Counted from the first letter of the stretch, positions 10,334 through 29,674 are shown. The stretch: 29,674 nucleotides of DNA from Candidatus Heimdallarchaeota archaeon (GCA_016839945.1 JAEOTE010000095.1:1-29674), one strand, 5' to 3'. The notes: generated from the sequence alone by a model not told the origin. Numbers and translations: made by a program.

Positions 10334-11300
10334 ATTATTAGAACCTTCAACTTATCCTCATGAAACTGAAAAGGAAATTGAGCTAATTGAAACGAATATA
10401 AGTTGGATTTTCTTGACAGGCTCTTTTGCATACAAAATGAAGAAAGAGATAAAATTCGGGGAAGTTTTAGACTTTTCTACACTTAAGAAAAGGTTGGAAG
10501 CCTGTAAAAATGAAATTATATTAAACAGGAGACTAGCTCCTGATGTTTATCTAAGTGTTGAAGGAATAAATAATGATGGAATTCTAAGTGATAAAGGAGA
10601 ACCTATTGAATATTTAGTCAAAATGAAACAACTACCTCAAGAATCTCTATTATCGTACAAAATAAAAAAAGAAAAAAGTTTGAGAAAAGAAACCATCAAA
10701 AATATTGCTAAGAAAATAGCAGAATTTCATCAACAAAATATAGTTTACCCAGAATATTCTCATTATGAAGACATTTTTGAGAAATGGGATGAAAATTTTA
10801 GAACCACAAAAACATATCCAAACTTTCCTTACGATGTCAAACTAGAAAAAAGAGTTTATGATTATTTAGTGAGAAATAAAGATTTCTGGGAAAAAAGAAA
10901 GGATTTAGGTAAAATCATTGAAGGTCATGGTGATCTTATATTGTCTAATATCTTTGAACTAGATGAAGATGATGAAATAGTTATTTTTGATTGTATAGAA
11001 TTCAATGAAACTTTAAGAATCCAAGATGTGTTGGAAGAGTTAGCATTTCTATCTATGGATTTAGACTTCAACGGATTAACTAAACAATCCGAATTATTCA
11101 TTTTCACCTACTTAGAAGAAACGAATGATAAGATGGAACCTTCATCTCCTTTTATTCAATTCTACAAATCCTACAGAGCTTATGTCAGAGCAAAGGTTTA
11201 CTGCTCATTATCACTGCAAGATATCTCTTCAAGTGAGAAAGATCAATTTCTAGCTTTAACTGAGAAATACAGAGAGCTTGCATCATCATACAGCTTCTAA
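10305..11300 (+). CDS. Aminoglycoside-phosphotransferase/kinase-like protein (COG2187)
   Basis: ELIETNISWIFLTGSFAYKMKK, LDFSTLKKRLEACKNEIILNRRLAPDVY, IEGHGDLILSNI, IFDCIEFNETLR..D..EELAFLSMDL and FYKSYRAYVRAKV. Confidence 0.9.
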   Translation: MLSQKEILNKLLEPSTYPHETEKEIELIETNISWIFLTGSFAYKMKKEIKFGEVLDFSTLKKRLEACKNEIILNRRLAPDVYLSVEGINNDGILSDKGEPIEYLVKMKQLPQESLLSYKIKKEKSLRKETIKNIAKKIAEFHQQNIVYPEYSHYEDIFEKWDENFRTTKTYPNFPYDVKLEKRVYDYLVRNKDFWEKRKDLGKIIEGHGDLILSNIFELDEDDEIVIFDCIEFNETLRIQDVLEELAFLSMDLDFNGLTKQSELFIFTYLEETNDKMEPSSPFIQFYKSYRAYVRAKVYCSLSLQDISSSEKDQFLALTEKYRELASSYSF

Positions 11301-11349
11301 AATCTAGATTTTCCAAACTCATATAAAGAATAACAAAAATGAGAATAAC

Positions 11350-12201
11350 ATGAAAGTTGGGTGTCATGTTTCTATTGCTAAATCAATAGATTTATCCTTT
11401 TCAAGAGCAAAAGAAATAGGCTGTACAACTTTTCAAATATTTACAAAAAATCCAAGAGGATGGTCTGCAAAACCATTAGAAAAAGAAGCGATTGTAAAAT
11501 TTAAGAGTCAAATGGTTCAATATGGTATATCTCCAGTTTTTGCACATATTTCATACTTACCAAATTTAGCATCTTTAGATAAAACTGTATATACAAAATC
11601 AATAGAATCACTATTGGTTGAATTAGAACGTTGCATGATATTAACAATTCCATATTTTATTATTCATGGGGGTTCATATAAGGGAGGTTCCTTTAAACAA
11701 GGATTCGATACATACATAAACTCCATTCTCAAAGGATTAGAAATTCTAGGAAACAAAGTCACTATTCTAGTTGAAAACTCAGCTGGAGGAAAGAATTCTA
11801 TAACAGGAGACATAAACAATATTGCCAAGATACTAGAAGAAATAGGAGATGAGAGGTCTGTTAAATTTTGTTTTGACACTTGTCATGGTTTTAGTGCAGG
11901 TTATGATTTAAGGAATAAAAAAGCAATAGCTAATACACTAGCTGTTATTGAATCTAATATAGGAATAGATAATCTGGTCCTAATTCATGCAAATGATTCT
12001 AAAGGTGATTTTATGTCTCATCGTGATATACATGAACACATAGGTTTAGGGAAAATTGGCGAAGAAGGATTCAAAGAATTAGTTAATCATCCTTTGTTGA
12101 AAAACAAATTTTGGATTCTAGAAACACCAGTAAATGAAATAAGGGGGGATATAGAAAATATCAACTTCTTACTTTCTTTGGTGGAAAATAAAAAAGAATA
12201 A
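11350..12201 (+). CDS. nfo: Endonuclease IV (AP endonuclease 2 family)
   Basis: GCHVSIA, FQIFTKNPRGW, HISYLPNLA, ENSAG, CFDTCHGFSAGYD, HANDSK, HRDIHEHIGLG and ILETP; the Zn-ligand motifs are present. Confidence 0.95.
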   Translation: MKVGCHVSIAKSIDLSFSRAKEIGCTTFQIFTKNPRGWSAKPLEKEAIVKFKSQMVQYGISPVFAHISYLPNLASLDKTVYTKSIESLLVELERCMILTIPYFIIHGGSYKGGSFKQGFDTYINSILKGLEILGNKVTILVENSAGGKNSITGDINNIAKILEEIGDERSVKFCFDTCHGFSAGYDLRNKKAIANTLAVIESNIGIDNLVLIHANDSKGDFMSHRDIHEHIGLGKIGEEGFKELVNHPLLKNKFWILETPVNEIRGDIENINFLLSLVENKKE

Positions 12202-12887: not shown

Positions 12888-13808
12888 CTAAGATTTTTCC
12901 TTTTGATAATAATCACTAATGAAATTAGACAGCTTTTGGTCTCTAACTTCCCATTTTGAATGTTTTAACACTTCTTGGATTAAATAAGAGAGTCTTCTTG
13001 CTTCAGGAAGAGAATTTTCATCTTCTACAGCAATTGAAATTACTATATTCTTTTCTTCTGCGATAAAGAAATAATGAGGATCCACTTTTATCACTTTGAA
13101 TTTCTCTTCACCTAGAAGCTCATCTGTAAAACCACTCAAAGCTTTAAGATAACCTACAAACATTCCAGTATCATCTACAAGATTATGAGGATCATGAATA
13201 AAAAGTGGTGTTCCTATTGAGTCAGATATAATAATAGCTAAAGGTTCTTGATTCTCTATTTCATAGTTTTGTCTTACTTTAGAAAAAAACCATTTCATAG
13301 CATAATTCAAGTTAGATTCTGTTCTCAATGATGTTTTAAAAATCTGAAATGAGATATCAGGTAAACTAGACATTTTTGTTAGATTTAATTCTTCGATTAT
13401 TTCTTCAAGATTCATCGATTTTTTTAGATCCGACTTATTTGCAAGAAACAGAATAACTTTATCCAAAAATGATCCTTGAAGCCATTCATTCATCATTATC
13501 CAGAACCATTTCTTTGCTTCCTCAATTTTCTGTTCATCTGAAGAATCAAAAACAAAAATAATACCAGCTGATGATATGGCATAAGTTTTCCATATTTCTT
13601 CACGAAAAGATTCTTGGCCAGATAAATCAAAGATACTGAAAGTTACATCTCCTATCACAACTTGATCAAATTTAAGACCAATCGTAGGTTTAGGTCGAGT
13701 AAATCTTTTTTCTTTCAACCAATTAACTAATGTAGTTTTCCCTGCATAGGGTAAGCCTATTACAGCAACTGGAATACCTGATTTATTCAGTTTCAGTAAG
13801 TCTTTCAT
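12888..13808 (-). CDS. Arf-like small GTPase fused to a C-terminal longin/roadblock-like domain
   Basis: G1 GLPYAGKTT, G2 PKPTIG, G3 FDLSGQESFR..IWKTY, GIIFVFDSSD, G4 LANKSDL and G5 FKTS. The C-terminal LAIIISDSIGTPLF...MFVGYLKALSGFTDELLG..FKVIKV...FFIAEE..IVISIAV has the longin-type beta-beta-alpha-beta-beta-beta-alpha pattern. Confidence 0.9.
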   Translation of the reverse strand: MKDLLKLNKSGIPVAVIGLPYAGKTTLVNWLKEKRFTRPKPTIGLKFDQVVIGDVTFSIFDLSGQESFREEIWKTYAISSAGIIFVFDSSDEQKIEEAKKWFWIMMNEWLQGSFLDKVILFLANKSDLKKSMNLEEIIEELNLTKMSSLPDISFQIFKTSLRTESNLNYAMKWFFSKVRQNYEIENQEPLAIIISDSIGTPLFIHDPHNLVDDTGMFVGYLKALSGFTDELLGEEKFKVIKVDPHYFFIAEEKNIVISIAVEDENSLPEARRLSYLIQEVLKHSKWEVRDQKLSNFISDYYQKEKS

Positions 13809-17613: not shown

Positions 17614-17985
17614 TCACTCTGGAATTTCTAAGTCTACAGTTTCAATAGTTAAGTATTGCATATTCAGATGAGTATCTCGAGAATCACATTTAGAGCATTT
17701 AAAATTAAAGGCAAATTCTTCATCTTTTTCTTTTGATGGTTCTCCTTTATAATCACAATTTAAACAGGTAATTTCAGCAGGTTTCATGATCAATTCTAAT
17801 TTTGATCCTCTAAATTTGTCCAATTCATCGACAATAATATCATATGCTTCATAAAGTAAATCAGGAATTACCATTTCATAAGGTCCTGCTGAAACAGTAA
17901 TTTTCTTTACACGATTTGCCTTATGTTGTTTTACAATAGCTTTGACTTGATCAATTATAGCAACTGCAAGACTATATTCGTGCAT
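17614..17985 (-). CDS. hypA: Hydrogenase maturation nickel metallochaperone HypA
   Basis: N-terminal MHEYSLA Ni-binding motif and a CLNC...CSKC Zn finger; adjacent to hypB. Confidence 0.95.
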   Translation of the reverse strand: MHEYSLAVAIIDQVKAIVKQHKANRVKKITVSAGPYEMVIPDLLYEAYDIIVDELDKFRGSKLELIMKPAEITCLNCDYKGEPSKEKDEEFAFNFKCSKCDSRDTHLNMQYLTIETVDLEIPE

Positions 17986-17995
17986 TTTACTCTTC

Positions 17996-18649
17996 CTATG
18001 GAAATTTTATACCAAGGGTGTTGATAAGTTCGTCTACACCTAAACCAGTTTTTGCACTTGTGCATATCACTTTCATTCCAGATTTGATTTTGGTTGCATC
18101 TTCTCTTAAAACCTTGGAATCAAAGTCAGATCCTTCTATATCACATTTATTTATGATTGCTATATCTGCTCCTTTAAAGATAATAGGGTGCTTCTTTATC
18201 ACATATTCTCCCTCAGTAATGCTTACAACTACTATATTTAATTGAGCTCCAATATCCCATGAAGATGGACAAATTAAATTTCCAACATTTTCAGCAAAAA
18301 AGATGTCATAACTATCAATATCAATTTTATCTAATTCACTAAGGATTAATTTAGCAGTAAGATGACATCCGCCACCAGTGTTGATTTGAACTGTTGTAGC
18401 CCCCTGTTTGGCAATTCTATCTGCATCAATTGTAGTTGCAACATCACCATTTATTACAAAAATCCGATATTTAGAAGACAGTTTTTCTGCTATTCTTTCA
18501 AGCAGAAGTGTTTTTCCTGCTCCAATTGATCCCATTATATTGAAAAAAAGTTTGTTTTTTTCTTCCATTTCAACTCTAATTTGGTCAGCAATTTCATCAT
18601 TTGCAATATATGCTTGCTTCTTAACCACAATTTTCTTCTCTTTTGCCAT
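17996..18649 (-). CDS. hypB: Hydrogenase nickel-incorporation GTPase HypB
   Basis: NIMGSIGAGKTLLLE, GDVATTIDADRI, QINTGGGCHL, ENVGNLICP, SITEGE, KHPIIF and INKCD. Confidence 0.95.
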   Translation of the reverse strand: MAKEKKIVVKKQAYIANDEIADQIRVEMEEKNKLFFNIMGSIGAGKTLLLERIAEKLSSKYRIFVINGDVATTIDADRIAKQGATTVQINTGGGCHLTAKLILSELDKIDIDSYDIFFAENVGNLICPSSWDIGAQLNIVVVSITEGEYVIKKHPIIFKGADIAIINKCDIEGSDFDSKVLREDATKIKSGMKVICTSAKTGLGVDELINTLGIKFP

Positions 18650-21306: not shown

Positions 21307-22203
21307 ATGAAAGTTACGTATAACAGATACCCAGAGCTTGAACAATTTCTAAATACTTTCGTTGAGTTTACTGTAACTTCATTAACTGTAAAATCTATTA
21401 TTCTTTTCGGAGGAATTACTCTAGATGATTTCTCAAAGAGATACAGTGAGATAGATATTGTTGTTGTTTTAGAAAAAGGATTGTGGAAAAAGGATTTTGA
21501 CACTCTTGATGAGATTATATCCAAAATAGGACAACTGAACAAGGAATTTGCACAGATTTTTACAGCCTATTTTGTTCCAGTAACGATGCTTGAAAATCCA
21601 AGGATTGTATATAATGACTTGGAAGGAATTATCGTTCGCAATTTGAATCAAATTATTATTGATCAGTATCCTCTTTCCCTTACTGATGATTTTGTAATTC
21701 AGAAGAAAGGAGAAGTATTATATGGAGAAAACATAATCAACAAGTTCCCTATCCCTCCTTTAGATTGTTTTTGGATCCAATTTGTGGAAGATTTATCAAT
21801 AATTGAAGCAATAGCAAAAGAGTACCCATTTCAACATGCTGATTCTCCTAACTATAATCAAGCTACTAATTGGATTCATTATTTCTCACGAATGCTTTAT
21901 TCTATCAAAAATAATGACATTTTAGGAAAACTAAAGGGTGCTTATTGGTTTTCTAATGAATACTATGGAGAACTAGGAGATTTCGTGACAGAAGTAGCCA
22001 GTTGTCGTCAGAAAAACATCTCCTTATCCAGTTTAATAGGTGTTGTAGAAAATAGTAGAAAATTACTTCTTTTCTTTTTAGAAAAAGCTTTTGAGCTGAA
22101 AGGAGTAAAGATTCCTAATCTGAGTATTTTGGTAAAATATGAAAACGATGTTGCCAATTTTAGTAGAGTATTTATGGAACTTAGGAATTTTGTAAGTGAT
22201 TAG
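21307..22203 (+). CDS. Pol-beta-fold nucleotidyltransferase with an AadA/DUF4111-like C-terminal helical domain
   Basis: SIILFGGITLDDFSKRYSEIDIVVVL is a variant of hGS..GDF....SDhDh. Also GEVLYGE and FSRMLYSIKNNDILGKLKGAYW, similar to the 'CRhhYT...g.hhSK..Aa.W' of ANT(3'')/DUF4111. Confidence 0.75.
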   Translation: MKVTYNRYPELEQFLNTFVEFTVTSLTVKSIILFGGITLDDFSKRYSEIDIVVVLEKGLWKKDFDTLDEIISKIGQLNKEFAQIFTAYFVPVTMLENPRIVYNDLEGIIVRNLNQIIIDQYPLSLTDDFVIQKKGEVLYGENIINKFPIPPLDCFWIQFVEDLSIIEAIAKEYPFQHADSPNYNQATNWIHYFSRMLYSIKNNDILGKLKGAYWFSNEYYGELGDFVTEVASCRQKNISLSSLIGVVENSRKLLLFFLEKAFELKGVKIPNLSILVKYENDVANFSRVFMELRNFVSD

Positions 22204-22209
22204 TTAAAT

Positions 22210-23586
22210 GTGGAAAAAATGAATGATAGGAGCAAAGTGCTTGAAACATTCATTAGTAAACTATTAACAGTTGTGCCAAGAACAATTTGTGTATATGAAT
22301 TTACAAAAGAAATAACTCAATTTGATAAGTGGCTGAAAAATAAGAAAGGTTTAGTTGTAGTTATTGACGATGATGATCATTCTTTAGAAAATCTTCTTCT
22401 TATAGATTTAATTTATGATACAATTCAAGATGAATTTGGCTGGAGAGAGGGAACAGCTTTTGCTTCAGCCTTTTCAAGAGGATATATTCGTACAAGAAAT
22501 AATTTATGGCATATCAATATTCAGAATTCACACTGCCTTTTACCTGAAGATATGATTAACCTAAAAAAAACAAGACAATTACTTCATGGTGAAGATATCA
22601 TATCAAGAATAGGTTTTCCTCATCAAGAAGAAGAAATACTGAGAATCAGCCCAGGACTTACAAGAAAAGAAGCTACAGAAATAGCTAAAAAACATCCTCA
22701 ATACAAACCCTTAGTTGAACCTGAATGTTGTTTAGCAAGGCATGATTTCGTAATAAAACACTCAATAGTAAATCTTCTAGAAGACAATTTAGTAATGTTT
22801 AAGAATTATATAAAACCTGAAAGAAATGCTCATTTATACGGAAGGTATTGGGGTTCAGGTAAAACACAAATCATATACTCCCTCATTAAAAAATGCAAAG
22901 AATTAGAGATTCCTTTCCTCTATAGAACAGAATTTTGGAAAGGAGAAGATGGTAAATATATAGATATAGAACATAATCCTGACAACGATTCCGACAAAGT
23001 TAGTGAATGGGCTGCCTTACATGCTCCTTCTCCACAATTTGTTCTATTTCTTGATGAAGTTGATATTGACATTAACCTTCTTAATGAGAATCTCAAAGTC
23101 AAGTATAAAGACTATGATCCTCTTTTTTATATCATATCCGGAGCTAAGGAAATAAGCTATTTTGTAGACGATGACTTCGATGTTTATGATATTGTAAAAG
23201 AATATCCATTTAATGAAACACAATACAGAGAGTTAGTTGAGAAATTAATGGATAAATCAAATTTAGATAAAACTGTCTTTGCAGAAGAAGTCATAGACAT
23301 TATTGTGAAGAAAACACGTTTATGGAATCACTCCTCAATCAGAAAAACTCCTACAGCTGTTATTTTAACAGCAACATTAGCTTTAATAGAATCAATAAAG
23401 AAATGTGATGATTTAGGTCAACAGCACGTTATTCTTCCTGAGATTGCAGAAAAGTGGGCACTTTTAGGAACTTCTCCTTGGTACCAATTACATGGTGAAT
23501 TGCATGATGTTCATGCTGAATACTTAATTTTTGATGGACAAAAATATACTGAAAAAGATGAGCATTACGATTATCCGCTGCCTTGA
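22210..23586 (+). CDS. Degenerate NTase-like N-terminal domain fused to a P-loop AAA+-type ATPase
   Basis: AHLYGRYWGSGKT (Walker A) and FVLFLDEVD (Walker B). The N-terminal half resembles the upstream NTase (QLLHGEDII vs EVLYGENII). It starts 6 nt after the upstream stop; the start is the GTG at 22210 or the ATG at 22219. Confidence 0.65.
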   Translation: MEKMNDRSKVLETFISKLLTVVPRTICVYEFTKEITQFDKWLKNKKGLVVVIDDDDHSLENLLLIDLIYDTIQDEFGWREGTAFASAFSRGYIRTRNNLWHINIQNSHCLLPEDMINLKKTRQLLHGEDIISRIGFPHQEEEILRISPGLTRKEATEIAKKHPQYKPLVEPECCLARHDFVIKHSIVNLLEDNLVMFKNYIKPERNAHLYGRYWGSGKTQIIYSLIKKCKELEIPFLYRTEFWKGEDGKYIDIEHNPDNDSDKVSEWAALHAPSPQFVLFLDEVDIDINLLNENLKVKYKDYDPLFYIISGAKEISYFVDDDFDVYDIVKEYPFNETQYRELVEKLMDKSNLDKTVFAEEVIDIIVKKTRLWNHSSIRKTPTAVILTATLALIESIKKCDDLGQQHVILPEIAEKWALLGTSPWYQLHGELHDVHAEYLIFDGQKYTEKDEHYDYPLP

Positions 23587-24658: not shown

Positions 24659-24780
24659 TGAAACAGTTTAAACAAATTCAATGTTAATCTTAAAGTTTAT
24701 GAGAACTGCAAAGTTGAACACCAAAATAAATATTCTAATTCTCATTAAAGTTTATATACTTAGAATGTCATGCATTCTAG

Positions 24781-27261
24781 ATGGAATTAGAGAAGGAGAG
24801 AAAGTTACACAGTTATCTTTCTAACATATTTTATTATACATTTGTTTTAATAATTGCAATAATTTTTGTTTTGTCATTCCTAGTTACAGATGTGGAGATA
24901 ATTAACAATATACTCTATATTGTTCTAATTGTCTCTTCACTAGTTATTGTCTTCTATTTAGCGGTTCAGATGCTACAATATAATCGCAGAGTAAACAAGA
25001 AAGCCCAATTAGGAATCTTTCTTATTGTTATTGGTTTTCTTCTTATTTTAACCTCAACAAGTAAAGAAATTTCACTTGGGGGTTGGTTTTTACTTGATTT
25101 TCTGGGCGATTATTTCTTTGTATATTGGGGTATAGGTTCTATTGTTACTGGTATTATAGTTGAATTAACTTTCCTTGATCAACTTCTCTGGGATATGTTT
25201 GTTAAACCTTTCAAATTTTTATGGGAAAAACTAGTTGCACTGGCAAAATTAATCTGGAAACATTGGAAGAATATTTTGTTATATACACTAGATTTAGCAT
25301 CCATAGGTGGCATAATTTATGTTGCTGTTATATGGGAAATCTTATGGTGGAAAATTGTAATACTATCTGTTTGTTGTGTTTATCCTATCGCACATCATTC
25401 AAAACGAATTTGGAGAGCAATAAGATTCTTTGCTGTTGAGATCATCTATAAAATGTTTTACGAAATAGGTGTTCTCATAAAAAATGTTGCAGTATCGATT
25501 TGGAATGCTGTTGTTAGATTTTTCAAATTTATCGCAGAACACTGGTGGATTATTCTCAAAGAATTTTTACGTTTAGTAGTAGCTGTTGCTGGTATAGTTC
25601 TCCTCACACTTAAGAATCAGATAGATCCTGCATTTATTGTTCCCACATTTGTGTGGTGGCTCATCATGTTTGGAGCTATCTTGATTGGAGAGCTATTTTC
25701 AAGGAAGATTGTCCTCATAAAAACATGGAATGCAATTAAAAGCTTCTTTACATTCGTATGGAATGTAATTGTAGACACATTCAAATTTTTCTTAGAACAT
25801 TGGTGGATCATTCTCAAGGAATTCTTAAGATTTGCAACTGCCGTTACAGGTATATTCCTTTTCATCTACAATGAAGAGATAGATCCTTCATCTTCTGCTC
25901 CCGCATTTGCATGGTGGCTCATCATGTTTGGAGCTATCTTGATAGGAGAGCTGTTTTCAAGAAGAATAATTCTCATAAAAACATGGAATGCAATTGTAAG
26001 TTTCTCCGAATTCTTATGGAGAATCATTAAAACTCTAGCCAATAAAATGTGGGAAGCTATAAGAAGAATGTTTAGCTACCTTTTAAGAATACTCAAAAAT
26101 ATCTGGGAACTAATAAAAGAGCATGTTAAAAGAGTGCTTAACGAAACAGTTCGATTAATTCTCACTGCTGGTGCTATTTATTTAATTTTCTATGGAGTAT
26201 CCAATGATGCAGACTGGTATCCTTGGCTTGTAGGAATAAGTATTATTTTATTAGTTGAAATCATTCTCAGAAAAGTAGTTCTACTAAAAATTTACAATTT
26301 TATAAAGGAAGCTGCTTTATTCTTCTGGGAAATACTGAAGTTTCTATGGGAACCATTCAGATTCATATTAACAAAGATTTACGATTTACTCAAATTCATA
26401 AAAAAGCACTGGTTGAAAATACTACTCTATACTCTTGATTTAATATCCGTAGTTGCTATAATCTACTTCTCAGTTTCTTGGATTCTAGGCTTATTGTCTT
26501 TGATAATAATCGCAGCTGGTGGAATATATCTTGTGGGACATCATTATAAGACAATCTGGAAAGTAATAAGATTTGTAGCAGTAGATATTTTCTATAAATT
26601 CTTTTACAACGTTGTTAAATTCATTAAAAATATGTTTGAAGCAATCTGGGAGAAAATTGTTTCATTTATTAATTTCTGGAAAGAACATTGGAAGACAATT
26701 TTCAAGGAAGTTATAAGATTAGCAATTGCTGTTGCTGGTATTGTTATCTTTATCATTCAAGATAAAATAGATCCAACATCCTACTTACCTAATTTTGTTT
26801 GGTGGATTATTCTGATTGGAGCCATCCTGATTGGGGAAGTTTTTTCAAGAAAAATTGTTTTCATTAAAACATATGAAGCAATCAAATCAATTGTAACAAA
26901 ATTCTGGGAATGTTTGAAGAAAATACCGAAATTTATAGTAAATGTCTTTTATACTATTGGAATAACTCTACGAACTGTTTCAGTCTATGTTTATGATAAT
27001 TTCATTAGACTATTTTTGTTGTTATTCATGCTTTTCGCTATAGTATATGGTGTTGCTTTGTTATTCTCATTTATCAATCCAAGTGTTGACTTTATAGGAT
27101 TCTTTAGAAGTCTTGAAACATCAGCTAGACTTTCAATAGGTGCTGGTTTCATTATTTTATTCTCTGTTGCTCTCATCCTTTTAAGGAGAGAACTGAAGAA
27201 ACTACGAACAGGTACATCTAGAGTGTTGCTCAGCAAAATCAAGGAGAGGTGGCAGAAATGA
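24781..27261 (+). CDS. Large Trp/Phe-rich membrane protein built of tandem hydrophobic-hairpin plus amphipathic-helix repeats
   Basis: 826 aa. EHWWIILKEFLR...GI...IDP...F.WWLIMFGAILIGELFSR.I.LIKTWNAI occurs three times, and KHW..ILLYTLDL...HH.K.IW..IRF.AV.I.YK.FY occurs twice. A TATA-like TTTATATA lies at about 24751-24758. Confidence 0.85.
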   Translation: MELEKERKLHSYLSNIFYYTFVLIIAIIFVLSFLVTDVEIINNILYIVLIVSSLVIVFYLAVQMLQYNRRVNKKAQLGIFLIVIGFLLILTSTSKEISLGGWFLLDFLGDYFFVYWGIGSIVTGIIVELTFLDQLLWDMFVKPFKFLWEKLVALAKLIWKHWKNILLYTLDLASIGGIIYVAVIWEILWWKIVILSVCCVYPIAHHSKRIWRAIRFFAVEIIYKMFYEIGVLIKNVAVSIWNAVVRFFKFIAEHWWIILKEFLRLVVAVAGIVLLTLKNQIDPAFIVPTFVWWLIMFGAILIGELFSRKIVLIKTWNAIKSFFTFVWNVIVDTFKFFLEHWWIILKEFLRFATAVTGIFLFIYNEEIDPSSSAPAFAWWLIMFGAILIGELFSRRIILIKTWNAIVSFSEFLWRIIKTLANKMWEAIRRMFSYLLRILKNIWELIKEHVKRVLNETVRLILTAGAIYLIFYGVSNDADWYPWLVGISIILLVEIILRKVVLLKIYNFIKEAALFFWEILKFLWEPFRFILTKIYDLLKFIKKHWLKILLYTLDLISVVAIIYFSVSWILGLLSLIIIAAGGIYLVGHHYKTIWKVIRFVAVDIFYKFFYNVVKFIKNMFEAIWEKIVSFINFWKEHWKTIFKEVIRLAIAVAGIVIFIIQDKIDPTSYLPNFVWWIILIGAILIGEVFSRKIVFIKTYEAIKSIVTKFWECLKKIPKFIVNVFYTIGITLRTVSVYVYDNFIRLFLLLFMLFAIVYGVALLFSFINPSVDFIGFFRSLETSARLSIGAGFIILFSVALILLRRELKKLRTGTSRVLLSKIKERWQK
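25537..25995 (+). repeat. Intragenic direct repeat with a 258-nt (86-codon) period
   Basis: An identical 32-mer, tggtggctcatcatgtttggagctatcttgat, sits at 25654 and 25912, and an identical 24-mer, ctcataaaaacatggaatgcaatt, at 25714 and 25972. A third, more diverged copy starts at 26683. Confidence 0.9.
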
Positions 27262-28634
27262 AGGAAGAGAAAAAGAATAAGATTGATGCTGAAGAAGTCG
27301 AAAGAAATCCTGTTATCGCCACACTCTGGGTTGGATTAATAATTGGTGTTCTAGGAGTTCTAGGTATTATCATTTCACAAGTAGCTTTGGATGGAAATTA
27401 CTTCAGAATTTTCTTAGGAGTATTTCTGGGCGGAGTATTAATTTGCTTCTTTGCACTTATTCTTAGAAGATTAAGAAGAAAGGGAATAGAATATTTTGTA
27501 ATTGGCGCAGTTACTGCATATATTGGTTTTCTATTACTTGCTTTTCCAGCACTTTTTGCTACAATGGATATACAACTGTTTGCATTCCAATATGCTTACT
27601 ATATCTTAATGGTCGGAGGTGTTCTCTTAATAATTTTTGGCTTCTTTATGGAAACTTATGATTTAAACGAAAAGATAATTGAACTCTTCAAAAGAATTGG
27701 AGTTGCATTAAAGAACTTACTGAAAAAACTTAATTGGAAAATGATATTATCACCTTGGAACTTTCTATCAGTTGCAGGAATAATTGTTATCATTCTAACA
27801 TCAGAGGAAATTATTCCACTCCTTCCTGTAGTCTTCTATATCATAGGAAGTATATTGATTCTGGCTAACTTCGTGTACCATTTCAAAGAAGAAGTAGTTG
27901 AGGTTTTAAAGAATATTGGAAACATTTTCTATACATTCTTCAAAGCTTGGGCAAAAGCGCTAAAACAAATTCCAAGAATAATAAAGAAACTAGCACAGTG
28001 GTTGTATGATCCTGAAAGATTCAAAAGGATGATTAGGTGGGTATATAAGCAAATTAAACTTGTTGGAAAAGCAATAAAGTACATTGTAGTAAGAAATTAT
28101 ATTTTCCTATTTGCTTTTGGTATAGTAATGTTCTTCATCTTGAAAGATTTAAGTCTGGAAGTAAGAATATCAATCTCCTCCTTAGTTTGCTTCATTGCTT
28201 TAGTAAAACCAATCTTAGACTGGAGAGAACACTTTGGCGAAGAAATAAGCTCAGCAAGAATGTTTTTGTACAAAACAACACAAAAAACAAGGAATGTTTT
28301 CAAAAGGAGAGATATAATACGTTGTCCACATTGTAATTATTCAAACATTGCATCAAGAAGAGAATGTTGGAATTGTAAAGAAACAATACCAAATTGCTGG
28401 ATTTGTAATGGAGTTTTTGAACCTGAAACAGAAGTTGCTGTATGTCCAAATTGTGATAATAATTATCACATAAAACACTTGAAAGCATGGTTAAGATTTA
28501 ATCCAAAATGCCCAGTATGCCATGAACCTATAGAAAAGATTGAAACTGAGATCTACTTACCAGATTATTTTACATTAGCAGAACAAACTACAACTGAGAA
28601 TAACTCGCAAATAAGTGAAGATGTAGATTCTTGA
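27249..28634 (+). CDS. Multi-pass membrane protein with a C-terminal zinc ribbon and RING finger (putative membrane E3 ligase)
   Basis: About 8 hydrophobic segments. A CPHC..CWNC ribbon is followed by CWIC-x12-CPNC-x3-YHIKHLKAWLRFNPKCPVC, a RING with the conserved W and CPxC. The start is either the GTG at 27249 or the ATG at 27258, which forms an ATGA overlap with the upstream stop. Confidence 0.88.
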   Translation: MAEMKEEKKNKIDAEEVERNPVIATLWVGLIIGVLGVLGIIISQVALDGNYFRIFLGVFLGGVLICFFALILRRLRRKGIEYFVIGAVTAYIGFLLLAFPALFATMDIQLFAFQYAYYILMVGGVLLIIFGFFMETYDLNEKIIELFKRIGVALKNLLKKLNWKMILSPWNFLSVAGIIVIILTSEEIIPLLPVVFYIIGSILILANFVYHFKEEVVEVLKNIGNIFYTFFKAWAKALKQIPRIIKKLAQWLYDPERFKRMIRWVYKQIKLVGKAIKYIVVRNYIFLFAFGIVMFFILKDLSLEVRISISSLVCFIALVKPILDWREHFGEEISSARMFLYKTTQKTRNVFKRRDIIRCPHCNYSNIASRRECWNCKETIPNCWICNGVFEPETEVAVCPNCDNNYHIKHLKAWLRFNPKCPVCHEPIEKIETEIYLPDYFTLAEQTTTENNSQISEDVDS

Positions 28635-28734
28635 TAATTTACCCTCATAGTATACATTTAAATGCATGATTTACGTTATTTTCAAATAGAACCATTAAGA
28701 GGTTAAATTCTAAAAATAATAAAGAGGAATAAAT

Positions 28735-29674
28735 ATGGTTGAAGTAATAGAATGGCCCTTAGGACGAGGGGATGAAATCCTATACAGACATCCTCGAGAT
28801 ACCATAAATTGGGGAGACCAAGTGAATTGTCTACCCAATCAGTGTGCAGTTTTCATCAAAGATTCAGTTGTTTATGATGTCTTAAAATCAGGAAGGCATT
28901 TCATGAAAACAAAAAACATTCCACTTCTGACAACTTTTCTATCAAGAATCGTAGGGTTTGATAAATCACCCTTCAATTGTCAAGTGATTTTCATCAATTT
29001 AGCAGACTTTCAAGGAAAGTTTGGAGGACGAAGTCAAACACAAGAACTAGCTCCATTACAATTCTTTGGAGATTATTTCTACAAAATTGATGATATACAG
29101 AAATTCGCTTTTGAAATAGCTGGTAACAGAAATATCTATACTACTGCGGCTTTCAACGATTTCTTTAGAAATTTCGTTGTTCAAGAAGTTATTAGTAAAC
29201 TTTCAGAAAAAGGCATTGTAGATGTAATGTCTAATCTAGGCAAAACTTCTGATTTTATAGAAGGTGAAGTAAAAGCTGATCTACTAGAGATGGGAATCAA
29301 ACTGAAGAACCTGAAATTTGGTGGCATTGACACAACTCCTGAATATCGTGACAGACTCTTCTGGATGAGATCAGGTGTATCAGCAAGTCAAGTACAACAA
29401 TATGCTGGAATGGCTGATGTAGCAGAAGCTCTACCTGAAGGAGGATCTGGTCTAACTGGAGCTGTAATGGTAAACAACCTGTTTTCTAAGAGCGAAATTA
29501 AACAAGCTGATAAAATTGAGAAAAAAGGTGACGTAGAAGCAGCTTTCATAACATGCAATCAATGTAATAACAAAGTTTCTCCAGCATCTGCTTTTTGTGG
29601 AAGCTGTGGAGATCCTATGGACGACGAGAAGAAAGGTGAATTTAAGTTCTGCACTGAATGTGGTGCTAAGAACA
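28735..29674 (+). CDS. SPFH/Band-7 domain protein (YdjI-like) with C-terminal double zinc ribbon; 3'-truncated
   Basis: Not in the ORF track because it has no stop codon in the window. The translation MVEVIEW...ILYRHP...WGDQVNCLPNQCAVFIKD...GRHFMKTKNIPLL...SPFNCQVIFIN...KFGG...FFGDYFYKIDD matches YdjI/Band_7_1, and it ends CNQC...FCGSCG...KFCTECGAK. An SD-like GAGG lies upstream. Confidence 0.9.
   Translation, partial: MVEVIEWPLGRGDEILYRHPRDTINWGDQVNCLPNQCAVFIKDSVVYDVLKSGRHFMKTKNIPLLTTFLSRIVGFDKSPFNCQVIFINLADFQGKFGGRSQTQELAPLQFFGDYFYKIDDIQKFAFEIAGNRNIYTTAAFNDFFRNFVVQEVISKLSEKGIVDVMSNLGKTSDFIEGEVKADLLEMGIKLKNLKFGGIDTTPEYRDRLFWMRSGVSASQVQQYAGMADVAEALPEGGSGLTGAVMVNNLFSKSEIKQADKIEKKGDVEAAFITCNQCNNKVSPASAFCGSCGDPMDDEKKGEFKFCTECGAKN

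Follow-up and report, generated by a model that had tools for sequence, protein, structure and literature searches.

A translationally coupled gene pair of Heimdallarchaeia encodes a repeat membrane protein and a candidate membrane-embedded RING ligase

Introduction

In eukaryotes, the ubiquitination of membrane proteins underlies endoplasmic reticulum (ER)-associated degradation (ERAD) and sorting that depends on the endosomal sorting complexes required for transport (ESCRT). Hrd1/synoviolin and gp78/AMFR are the membrane ligases with which the locus described here invites comparison. Asgard archaea encode ubiquitin, the E1 and E2 enzymes, soluble RING proteins and ESCRT, and the Heimdallarchaeia are close archaeal relatives of eukaryotes. 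We have analyzed a stretch of 29,674 nucleotides from a Candidatus Heimdallarchaeota archaeon (GCA_016839945.1, JAEOTE010000095.1:1-29674; hereafter the window), which ends with genes for a repeat membrane protein (REP), a polytopic membrane protein with a C-terminal RING-like finger (RING-TM) and a protein of the SPFH family. Together the REP and RING-TM genes make up a cassette of two translationally coupled genes that occurs chiefly in a single order of the Heimdallarchaeia; more distant versions are present in three further contigs, one of them from Hodarchaeota. The two proteins very probably constitute a functional unit, and the comparisons made here lean toward an Asgard-specific, membrane-embedded RING E3 ligase as the identity of the cassette.

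Two other kinds of described system bear on the locus. Operon-encoded cascades of E1, E2 and (RING) E3 components are described from Asgard archaea and Aigarchaeota in work that is cited in PMC9192718 (Hennell James et al. 2017). On the SPFH side, YdjI of Bacillus subtilis is a soluble SPFH protein with a C-terminal zinc finger that YdjG and YdjH bring to the membrane (PMC8581546; PMC13713150). A first-pass annotation of the window, made from the sequence alone, had instead joined all three genes into a proto-ERAD module, a membrane-protein quality-control complex in which the SPFH protein would scaffold the RING protein as erlin-1/2 do with RNF170 and gp78. The SPFH gene, in our assessment, is likely to lie outside the REP/RING-TM unit.

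Results and Discussion

REP and RING-TM are encoded by a coupled and co-inherited gene pair

The window coincides with a whole 29.7-kb contig (G000:C68:1-29674) of a 3.0-Mb genome that is 88% complete, and close relatives of its proteins are labelled Candidatus Heimdallarchaeaceae or Heimdallarchaeota by their sources. Open reading frame (ORF) calls agree with the earlier view of three consecutive, co-oriented genes, all on the plus strand: REP (24781-27261, 826 amino acids), RING-TM (27258-28634, 458 amino acids from its ATG, or 461 from an alternative in-frame GTG at 27249) and SPFH (28735-29673), the last being open at its 3' side since the contig end falls inside the gene. The proposed ATGA coupling of the first two genes is also evident (27258-27261, plus strand), the ATG of RING-TM at 27258-27260 overlapping the TGA of REP at 27259-27261, and the two genes overlap or abut in orthologous loci too. 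A TATA-like box read from the sequence, TTTATATA (24751-24758, plus strand), lies about 25 nucleotides 5' of the REP ATG and is likely to be the promoter of the two-gene unit, which would then have a short leader or none.

REP directly precedes RING-TM, abutting or overlapping it, in every locus of the window's genus with enough sequence. A census with a profile of the RING-TM transmembrane domain (E ≤ 1e-15) found the full-length protein in 23 of the 30 other genomes of the window's family and, for two other families of the order, in the single f2 genome and in 8 of 12 f3 genomes. REP and RING-TM are present or missing together within the genus, and four of its genomes (G008, G010, G020 and G024) have neither a full-length RING-TM nor a REP match. 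Another genus genome, G012, has no intact pair; what it retains is an 85-amino-acid piece of the REP N terminus containing two stop codons (G012:C187:153-407), likely a decayed copy.

The pairing extends beyond the genus. At eight f2 and f3 loci RING-TM is preceded by a gene that ends within a few nucleotides of its start and encodes a protein of approximately 500-850 amino acids that is nearly free of cysteine and has, on a crude hydropathy scan, approximately 11-24 hydrophobic segments. The profile of these upstream proteins matches that of REP over its full length (hhalign probability 96.6%, E 6.8e-10), and they are therefore homologous to REP. The same layout recurs in a Hodarchaeota contig and in two other contigs, where a protein of 850-1150 amino acids with 23-30 transmembrane segments and no Pfam family is encoded 5' of a RING-TM relative; the Hodarchaeota relative is called a RING finger protein by its source.

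In family f3 the pair adjoins chemotaxis genes in two layouts. The first is CheC-CheD-REP-RING on one strand (L046:10382-11532; also L044:12267-13423), and in the second, genes for a P2-domain protein and a CheY-receiver protein lie upstream and downstream of the pair, respectively (L040:6079-7269 and 10675-11385, and L041, L043 and L064). These neighbourhoods raise the possibility that the cassette is a signalling or motility accessory, for example a sensor or effector coupled to chemotaxis-type signalling whose RING acts on signalling proteins. We consider this highly improbable: no che genes lie near the pair in the window's genus, where HypA/HypB and nucleotidyltransferase genes are found instead, nor in Hodarchaeota, f2 or the other loci, and both layouts fall inside a single family and could be inherited synteny.

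REP is a repeat membrane protein of variable length

The ORF, its translation and its internal repeats describe REP as a polytopic membrane protein built of repeated units. Repeat finding at the DNA level identified three direct repeats of 241 nucleotides within 25522-26908 on the plus strand (25522-25762, 25780-26020 and 26668-26908), the other copies being 78% and 66% identical to the reference copy, and these repeats record intragenic duplication. The corresponding protein units are approximately 86-98 amino acids long, 54-62% identical to each other, and each consists of long amphipathic helices rich in Trp, Lys and Phe and a transmembrane hairpin. Relatives in the close family range from 526 to 938 amino acids, so the number of repeats is not fixed; they are labelled Heimdallarchaeota, Asgard-group or, for one fragment, Thorarchaeota.

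Pfam searches with REP gave no match, and NCBIfam searches gave none for REP, RING-TM or the SPFH protein. The AlphaFold2 model of REP is all-helical and of low confidence, with a predicted local distance difference test score (pLDDT) of 54 and a predicted template modelling score (pTM) of 0.26, too poor for a fold search, and an ESM Atlas feature search yielded no usable match. We also asked whether REP and RING-TM are paralogs and rejected the idea: BLASTP between them gives E 0.49, and hhalign a single 31-column match of 58% probability over the last transmembrane helix.

RING-TM has an apparently Asgard-restricted membrane domain and a predicted cytoplasmic C terminus

The translation, the AlphaFold2 model (pLDDT 76.6, pTM 0.43) and an orthologue alignment together describe RING-TM as eight predicted transmembrane helices with two long amphipathic insertions, then a stalk helix, a C4 zinc ribbon and a RING-H2-like finger. 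The transmembrane domain comprises residues 21-322 (27309-28214, plus strand). Its loops on the side of the N terminus contain 5, 1 (plus the RRLRR that ends the second helix), 7, 17 and 17 Lys and Arg residues, against 0, 0, 0 and 1 on the other side. By this positive-inside count the predicted topology has both termini inside, which would place the N terminus, the amphipathic insertions and the RING on the cytoplasmic face.

Two conserved elements stand out in the domain, an RRLRRKG loop and an E-x-YDLN motif after the fourth helix. The latter (residues 134-140, window 27648-27668) lies at the cytoplasmic end of that helix; L139 and N140 are invariant and Y137 is conserved in at least 90% of sequences. 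Such near-invariance among orthologues that are otherwise about 20% identical makes the motif a candidate functional or interface site.

A profile of the membrane domain matched 63 sequences among 1.84 billion representatives, and every match whose source is named is Asgard, coming from Heimdall-, Hod-, Hermod- or Promethearchaeota. The outermost matches share only the first four transmembrane helices and the C-terminal zinc ribbon. Three such proteins of 745-1412 amino acids from Promethearchaeota and Hermod-/Hodarchaeota (P0102, P0103 and P0108), which share the first four helices only and end in a plain zinc ribbon with no RING, appear to represent a wider, uncharacterised Asgard membrane family.

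Searches for a described counterpart of the membrane domain gave little. A PDB profile search returned nothing relevant, Foldseek with the model against the PDB gave no membrane-domain match at E ≤ 0.001, VIA-align in its wide setting gave generic helical-hairpin matches only, and the Atlas searches with the membrane part found nothing by feature and only TM-scores below 0.3 by shape.

The C-terminal finger of RING-TM resembles RING-H2 ligases

That the second gene ends in a zinc ribbon plus a RING finger had been read from the window alone, and both are found at the C terminus of the 461-amino-acid protein. The ribbon ligands C359, C362, C373 and C376 (28323-28376, plus strand) are invariant in 17 of 17 aligned orthologues. 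The finger that follows (28395-28520, plus strand), which is supported by Pfam, PDB sequence and fold matches, has the pattern C-x2-C-x12-C-x2-C-x4-H-x2-H-x10-C-x2-C, formed by C383, C386, C399, C402, H407, H410, C421 and C424, with a Trp at position 414. Across the alignment of 17 orthologues, in which identity falls to 19%, the four ribbon cysteines, the eight RING ligands and W414 are all either invariant or at least 90% conserved: C399, C402, C421 and C424 are invariant, and the C383/C386 and H407/H410 pairs are conserved in at least 90%. The family f2 sequence at L042 has jointly lost C383, C386, H407 and H410 and has kept C399, C402, C421 and C424, which is expected if the four lost ligands (1, 2, 5 and 6) form one zinc site of a cross-brace. 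By ligand conservation and by fold, the finger has the eight-ligand cross-brace arrangement of a RING, with one site made by ligands 1, 2, 5 and 6 and the other by 3, 4, 7 and 8.

The scores of the finger against Pfam depend on the search. With the whole protein, hmmscan gives 24.4 bits to zf-RING_2 (PF13639; cut-off 27.3) and 24.1 bits to Prok-RING_1, each falling short of its gathering score; when the genome is searched in six frames, this stretch reaches 29.7 bits to zf-RING_2, above its cut-off, and most RING-TM orthologues have a precomputed PF13639 match. Sequence matches of the RING-TM tail in the PDB are led by RNF24 (4.3e-6), followed by Arkadia, RNF38, RNF165, EL5 and RLIM, all of them active RING-H2 ligases. 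The alignment with RNF24 shows Asn at the canonical His-4 position, the ligand being supplied by a Cys three residues upstream of the third ligand, in a CPxC knuckle. The canonical C3H2C3 spacing (C-x-H-x2-H-x2-C) is thus replaced by a C4H2C2 variant, which is constant across the family. Residues 378-439 of the model superpose on RNF165 (rmsd 1.9 over 49 columns), on RNF4 from its complex with UbcH5a-ubiquitin (Z 8.0, rmsd 2.2, 61 residues) and on Ring1b (Z 8.0, rmsd 1.6, 58 residues); U-boxes superpose too.

Among 68 relatives that bear the motif, the residue before the second ligand is Ile or Val in all 68 and the one after the seventh is Pro in all 68; 67 have the helix Trp, and in 66 the eighth ligand is followed by Lys, Arg or His. 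We take these positions to be the E2 contacts and the basic "linchpin" that activates ubiquitin-charged E2, on the model of the c-Cbl-UbcH7 and RNF4-UbcH5a~ubiquitin structures. Their near-invariance in a family that is otherwise about 20% identical favours an E2-binding finger over a purely structural one, and the finger seems capable of binding ubiquitin E2s.

The host genome encodes a ubiquitin system away from the cassette

The expectation that the host would encode ubiquitin, E1, E2 and RING components is borne out, all of them being found in the genome. Profile searches of the whole genome gave four matches to UQ_con (E2; on contigs C4, C69, C129 and C144), two to ubiquitin, three to ThiF (E1-type) and two to JAB. 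Ten ORFs resemble zf-RING_2, and a crude hydropathy scan shows one or more hydrophobic segments in seven of them. There are two ubiquitin gene clusters (G000:C69:24268-29710 and G000:C129:7-1810), the first of which is ordered E2, JAB, a 367-amino-acid RING ORF with N-terminal hydrophobic segments, ubiquitin and E1. Like the operon-encoded cascades of Asgard archaea and Aigarchaeota, RING-TM is an archaeal RING protein in a genome with eukaryote-like ubiquitin, E1, E2 and JAB proteins, the C69 operon having a RING ORF of its own. It differs from them in that the cassette lies outside the ubiquitin operon and in that RING-TM is polytopic, has a dedicated membrane partner and belongs to a distinct transmembrane family. 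In the f2 genome G025 a Cdc48 gene (CDC48_N plus two AAA domains; L042:7322-9439) lies approximately 4.5 kb from the pair, in this one genome only, parted from it by Cdc6-like and helix-turn-helix genes.

A ligase or a structural finger

The C-terminal finger of RING-TM could instead be a structural or assembly zinc module, in which case the cassette would encode some other membrane complex such as a scaffold, a sensor or a transporter, with the zinc domain regulating it or keeping it assembled. Tandem zinc-ribbon/RING domains stand at the C termini of IFT-A, GATOR2 and alpha-COP-type proteins, in which the RINGs serve mainly in assembly, and RING-TM shares this tandem arrangement with the C termini of IFT-A (WDR19/IFT144 and IFT121) and GATOR2 subunits. 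IFT-A and GATOR2 subunits are the top whole-model Foldseek matches, phmmer aligns the zinc ribbon plus RING to residues 1252-1323 of WDR19 (E 0.0014), and the Atlas shape search returns the Zf_2nd_IFT121 and Zf_IFT144 clusters at a TM-score of 0.44 by target. These likenesses weigh against a ligase, as do several features of the cassette itself: on its sequence the finger is non-canonical, with Asn at His-4 and whole-protein Pfam scores under the gathering cut-offs; no ubiquitin, E1 or E2 gene adjoins the REP/RING-TM pair at any locus examined; distribution is patchy, families f4-f7 of the class having yielded no full-length RING-TM at E ≤ 1e-15; and any role assigned to REP is a guess, given the unreliable model and the lack of known relatives.

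The likeness to IFT-A and GATOR2 is nevertheless weak, with E of at least 1e-3 and every Atlas TM-score below 0.5; no Pfam IFT zinc-finger model matches at E ≤ 1, and the IFT-A and GATOR2 domains follow beta-propeller or solenoid regions, not a membrane domain. The best sequence matches of the finger are active ligases, and the conservation of E2-binding positions and of the basic residue after the eighth ligand in 68 diverged relatives would be needless in a purely structural module. We regard a structural finger as rather unlikely, and we slightly favour an active E3 as the function of the RING of RING-TM.

The features that bring RING-TM close to Hrd1 and gp78 are its multi-pass membrane domain with a C-terminal RING-H2-like finger predicted to be cytoplasmic; the second half of the RING (H/C-L-K-x-W-L-x5-C-P-x-C-[KRH]), with the Trp and Pro of an E2 contact; and a conserved membrane partner in a host with ubiquitin, E1 and E2. 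Other features separate it from them. Ligand 4 comes from the CPxC knuckle and not from C-x-H, the RING has an additional zinc ribbon ahead of it, a unique repeat protein stands in the place of Hrd3, Der1 or Usa1 as partner, and there is no ER. No Hrd1 or gp78 chain occurs among the Foldseek or VIA-align matches, a shared fold being possible at the pTM of the RING-TM model. The term "proto-ERAD", taken as a claim of homology, is thus unsupported, there being no sequence or fold match of the transmembrane domain to Hrd1 or gp78 in the searches run.

We present the following hypothetical model for the cassette as a ligase. REP and RING-TM would assemble into one membrane complex, the cytoplasmic RING of which would recruit a ubiquitin-charged E2 whose gene lies at another place in the genome. 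This complex would ubiquitinate cytoplasmic lysines of membrane proteins, either clients held by REP or REP itself, and the ubiquitinated proteins could then enter ESCRT sorting or the Cdc48/proteasome route. The broader proposition, that Heimdallarchaeia possess a dedicated membrane RING E3 complex feeding membrane proteins to ubiquitin-ESCRT or Cdc48-proteasome machinery, is one that we advance only tentatively. If true, the membrane RING ligases of the ER and endosomes would have a pre-eukaryotic counterpart, either built independently or very remotely ancestral to them. In the searchable literature, with most subscription journals outside its scope, we found no Asgard polytopic membrane RING ligase with a dedicated partner and no ERAD-like module. 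The cassette bears on the origin of membrane-protein ubiquitination and is not a new principle. It defines two uncharacterised families without a Pfam match, the RING-TM membrane domain and REP, which carry Asgard labels wherever the source is named, and the RING-TM family defines a constant C4H2C2 RING variant. As a candidate it is small, concrete and amenable to test, involving a single cytoplasmic tail together with one E1, one ubiquitin and four E2s.

Promoter and phyletic pattern set the neighbouring SPFH gene apart

The third gene (28735-29674 in the window, plus strand, cut by the contig end) begins exactly 100 nucleotides after the RING-TM gene, as first reported, and encodes an SPFH protein with a C-terminal double zinc ribbon. 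It matches Band_7_1 (PF13421; 4.7e-19, 69.3 bits against a cut-off of 24) and Band_7 (1.2e-12), and its C terminus matches DZR and Zn_Ribbon_1. There is no hydrophobic or transmembrane segment in it, nor in its orthologues of 327-349 amino acids. The first-pass annotation had cautioned that this protein is of the YdjI type rather than of the erlin clade and may have its own promoter, and both cautions hold: its best family is Band_7_1, it is soluble, and a TATA box and leader are conserved whatever gene lies upstream.

The 110 nucleotides 5' of the SPFH start have a common layout in 13 loci irrespective of the upstream gene, with TTTAAA(A) approximately 75 nucleotides before the start, a palindrome 25-30 nucleotides further on and GAGG before the ATG. 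In the window this promoter and leader, recognised by conservation across the genus loci, occupy 28657-28727 on the plus strand (TTTAAA at 28657-28662, the palindrome AACC-N7-GGTT at 28690-28704 and GAGG at 28724-28727). The palindrome is kept in 12 related loci; it is operator-like and by appearance sits at the transcription start. By these sequence features, the SPFH promoter is independent and probably regulated. Neither an Rfam search of the whole window nor a consensus fold of the SPFH leader revealed an RNA family or a conserved structure.

A three-part quality-control module in which SPFH scaffolds the RING protein has some observations in its favour, the genes lying side by side in one orientation in the window and in about six further loci of the genus. 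Gene order within the genus is generally conserved, however, and HypA/HypB, the nucleotidyltransferase, its partner and a divergent 351-amino-acid gene are as constant in place as SPFH, so adjacency of SPFH and RING within the genus carries no specific signal. Nor is the adjacency unbroken. At four genus loci the two genes are 1.8-2.8 kb apart, with an opposite-strand family-2 glycosyltransferase and/or an FTR1 permease between them (the three resolved loci have the glycosyltransferase, two of them the permease as well), and in a fifth genus genome SPFH has a divergent major facilitator superfamily transporter gene upstream. Genomes G008 and G012 keep SPFH, and no full-length RING-TM or intact REP was found in either; downstream of SPFH both have a two-transmembrane protein of approximately 360 amino acids and then an M14-type peptidase homologue.

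Outside the genus the linkage that the module predicts across related genomes is not conserved. Among 16 such genomes, eight have the full-length pair without an SPFH orthologue (threshold E ≤ 1e-20), five have an SPFH orthologue without a full-length RING-TM, and none has both; these genomes are 63-94% complete, so that "not found" does not equal "absent". The five SPFH orthologues are 51-55% identical, and their genomes have domain-level RING matches only. Sequence divergence is likewise discordant: across the genus SPFH is 84-88% identical, versus 30-57% for REP and RING-TM, and the evolutionary rates are thus uncoupled.

A further argument for the three-part module could be drawn from RING-TM proteins of one subclade (P0010, P0012, P0013 and P0015; L028:9059-9196, G013), which have gained a C-terminal tail and zinc ribbon. 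Over 50 amino acids the added tail is 48% identical (E 6e-16) to residues 250-299 in the SPFH protein encoded next to it, and a tail and ribbon common to both proteins might mean that they have a partner in common; a functional link and a duplication or fusion of neighbouring genes account for the likeness equally well. A related protein, P0021, has kept the linker of the added tail and not the ribbon. It might also be argued that YdjI-type SPFH proteins need membrane partners for their recruitment (PMC8581546). Outside the genus SPFH has other membrane-protein neighbours. In five out-of-genus genomes (families f3 and f4) it adjoins two membrane proteins of approximately 330-380 amino acids that start with a CPNCG-type zinc ribbon, and a small Cys-rich membrane protein is also next to it in three of the four out-of-genus loci read. 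Taken with the Band_7_1 affiliation, the separate promoter, the intervening genes and the lack of co-occurrence, this leaves the three-part module very unlikely.

The comparison with erlin-1/2 and their partners RNF170 and gp78 is subject to the same findings. The likeness consists in SPFH and membrane RING genes that stand side by side in the window's genus, whereas the SPFH protein is soluble and of a different clade, its gene has a separate promoter, and neither linkage nor phyletic pattern is shared consistently with the RING gene. Both features that would define an erlin-RING resemblance, a membrane-anchored SPFH protein of the erlin clade and a conserved SPFH-RING association, fail. What endures of the proposed quality-control complex is a polytopic protein with a predicted cytoplasmic RING coupled to a repeat protein; SPFH as its third component does not, and dropping it from the model prevents a false claim of "erlin-like" homology.

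The window protein finds closer company in YdjI/SamI, being like it a Band_7_1 protein without a membrane anchor and with a low-complexity linker and a C-terminal zinc finger, and this places it with the YdjI-type membrane-stress SPFH proteins. The zinc-ribbon membrane proteins beside the out-of-genus SPFH genes resemble YdjG in their layout. Unlike the PspA-YdjGHI system of B. subtilis, no PspA gene was seen in the SPFH loci read, and unlike YdjGHI, the conserved gene near SPFH in the window's genus encodes a 342-367-amino-acid protein with two transmembrane segments and no Pfam family.

In four genus genomes a two-transmembrane protein of this kind (342-369 amino acids) is encoded directly 3' of SPFH on the same strand (L038:9634-10737, L035:9420-10448, L057:4816-5892 and L058:4808-5917), and elsewhere it lies a few genes away. 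We regard it as a candidate partner of the soluble SPFH protein in the membrane.

Other genes of the window

Upstream of the cassette the window contains HypA and HypB genes for nickel insertion (17614-18649), followed at 21307-23586 by a nucleotidyltransferase gene and then a 458-amino-acid ORF without a Pfam match. An Arf-family GTPase of 306 amino acids is encoded at 12888-13808.

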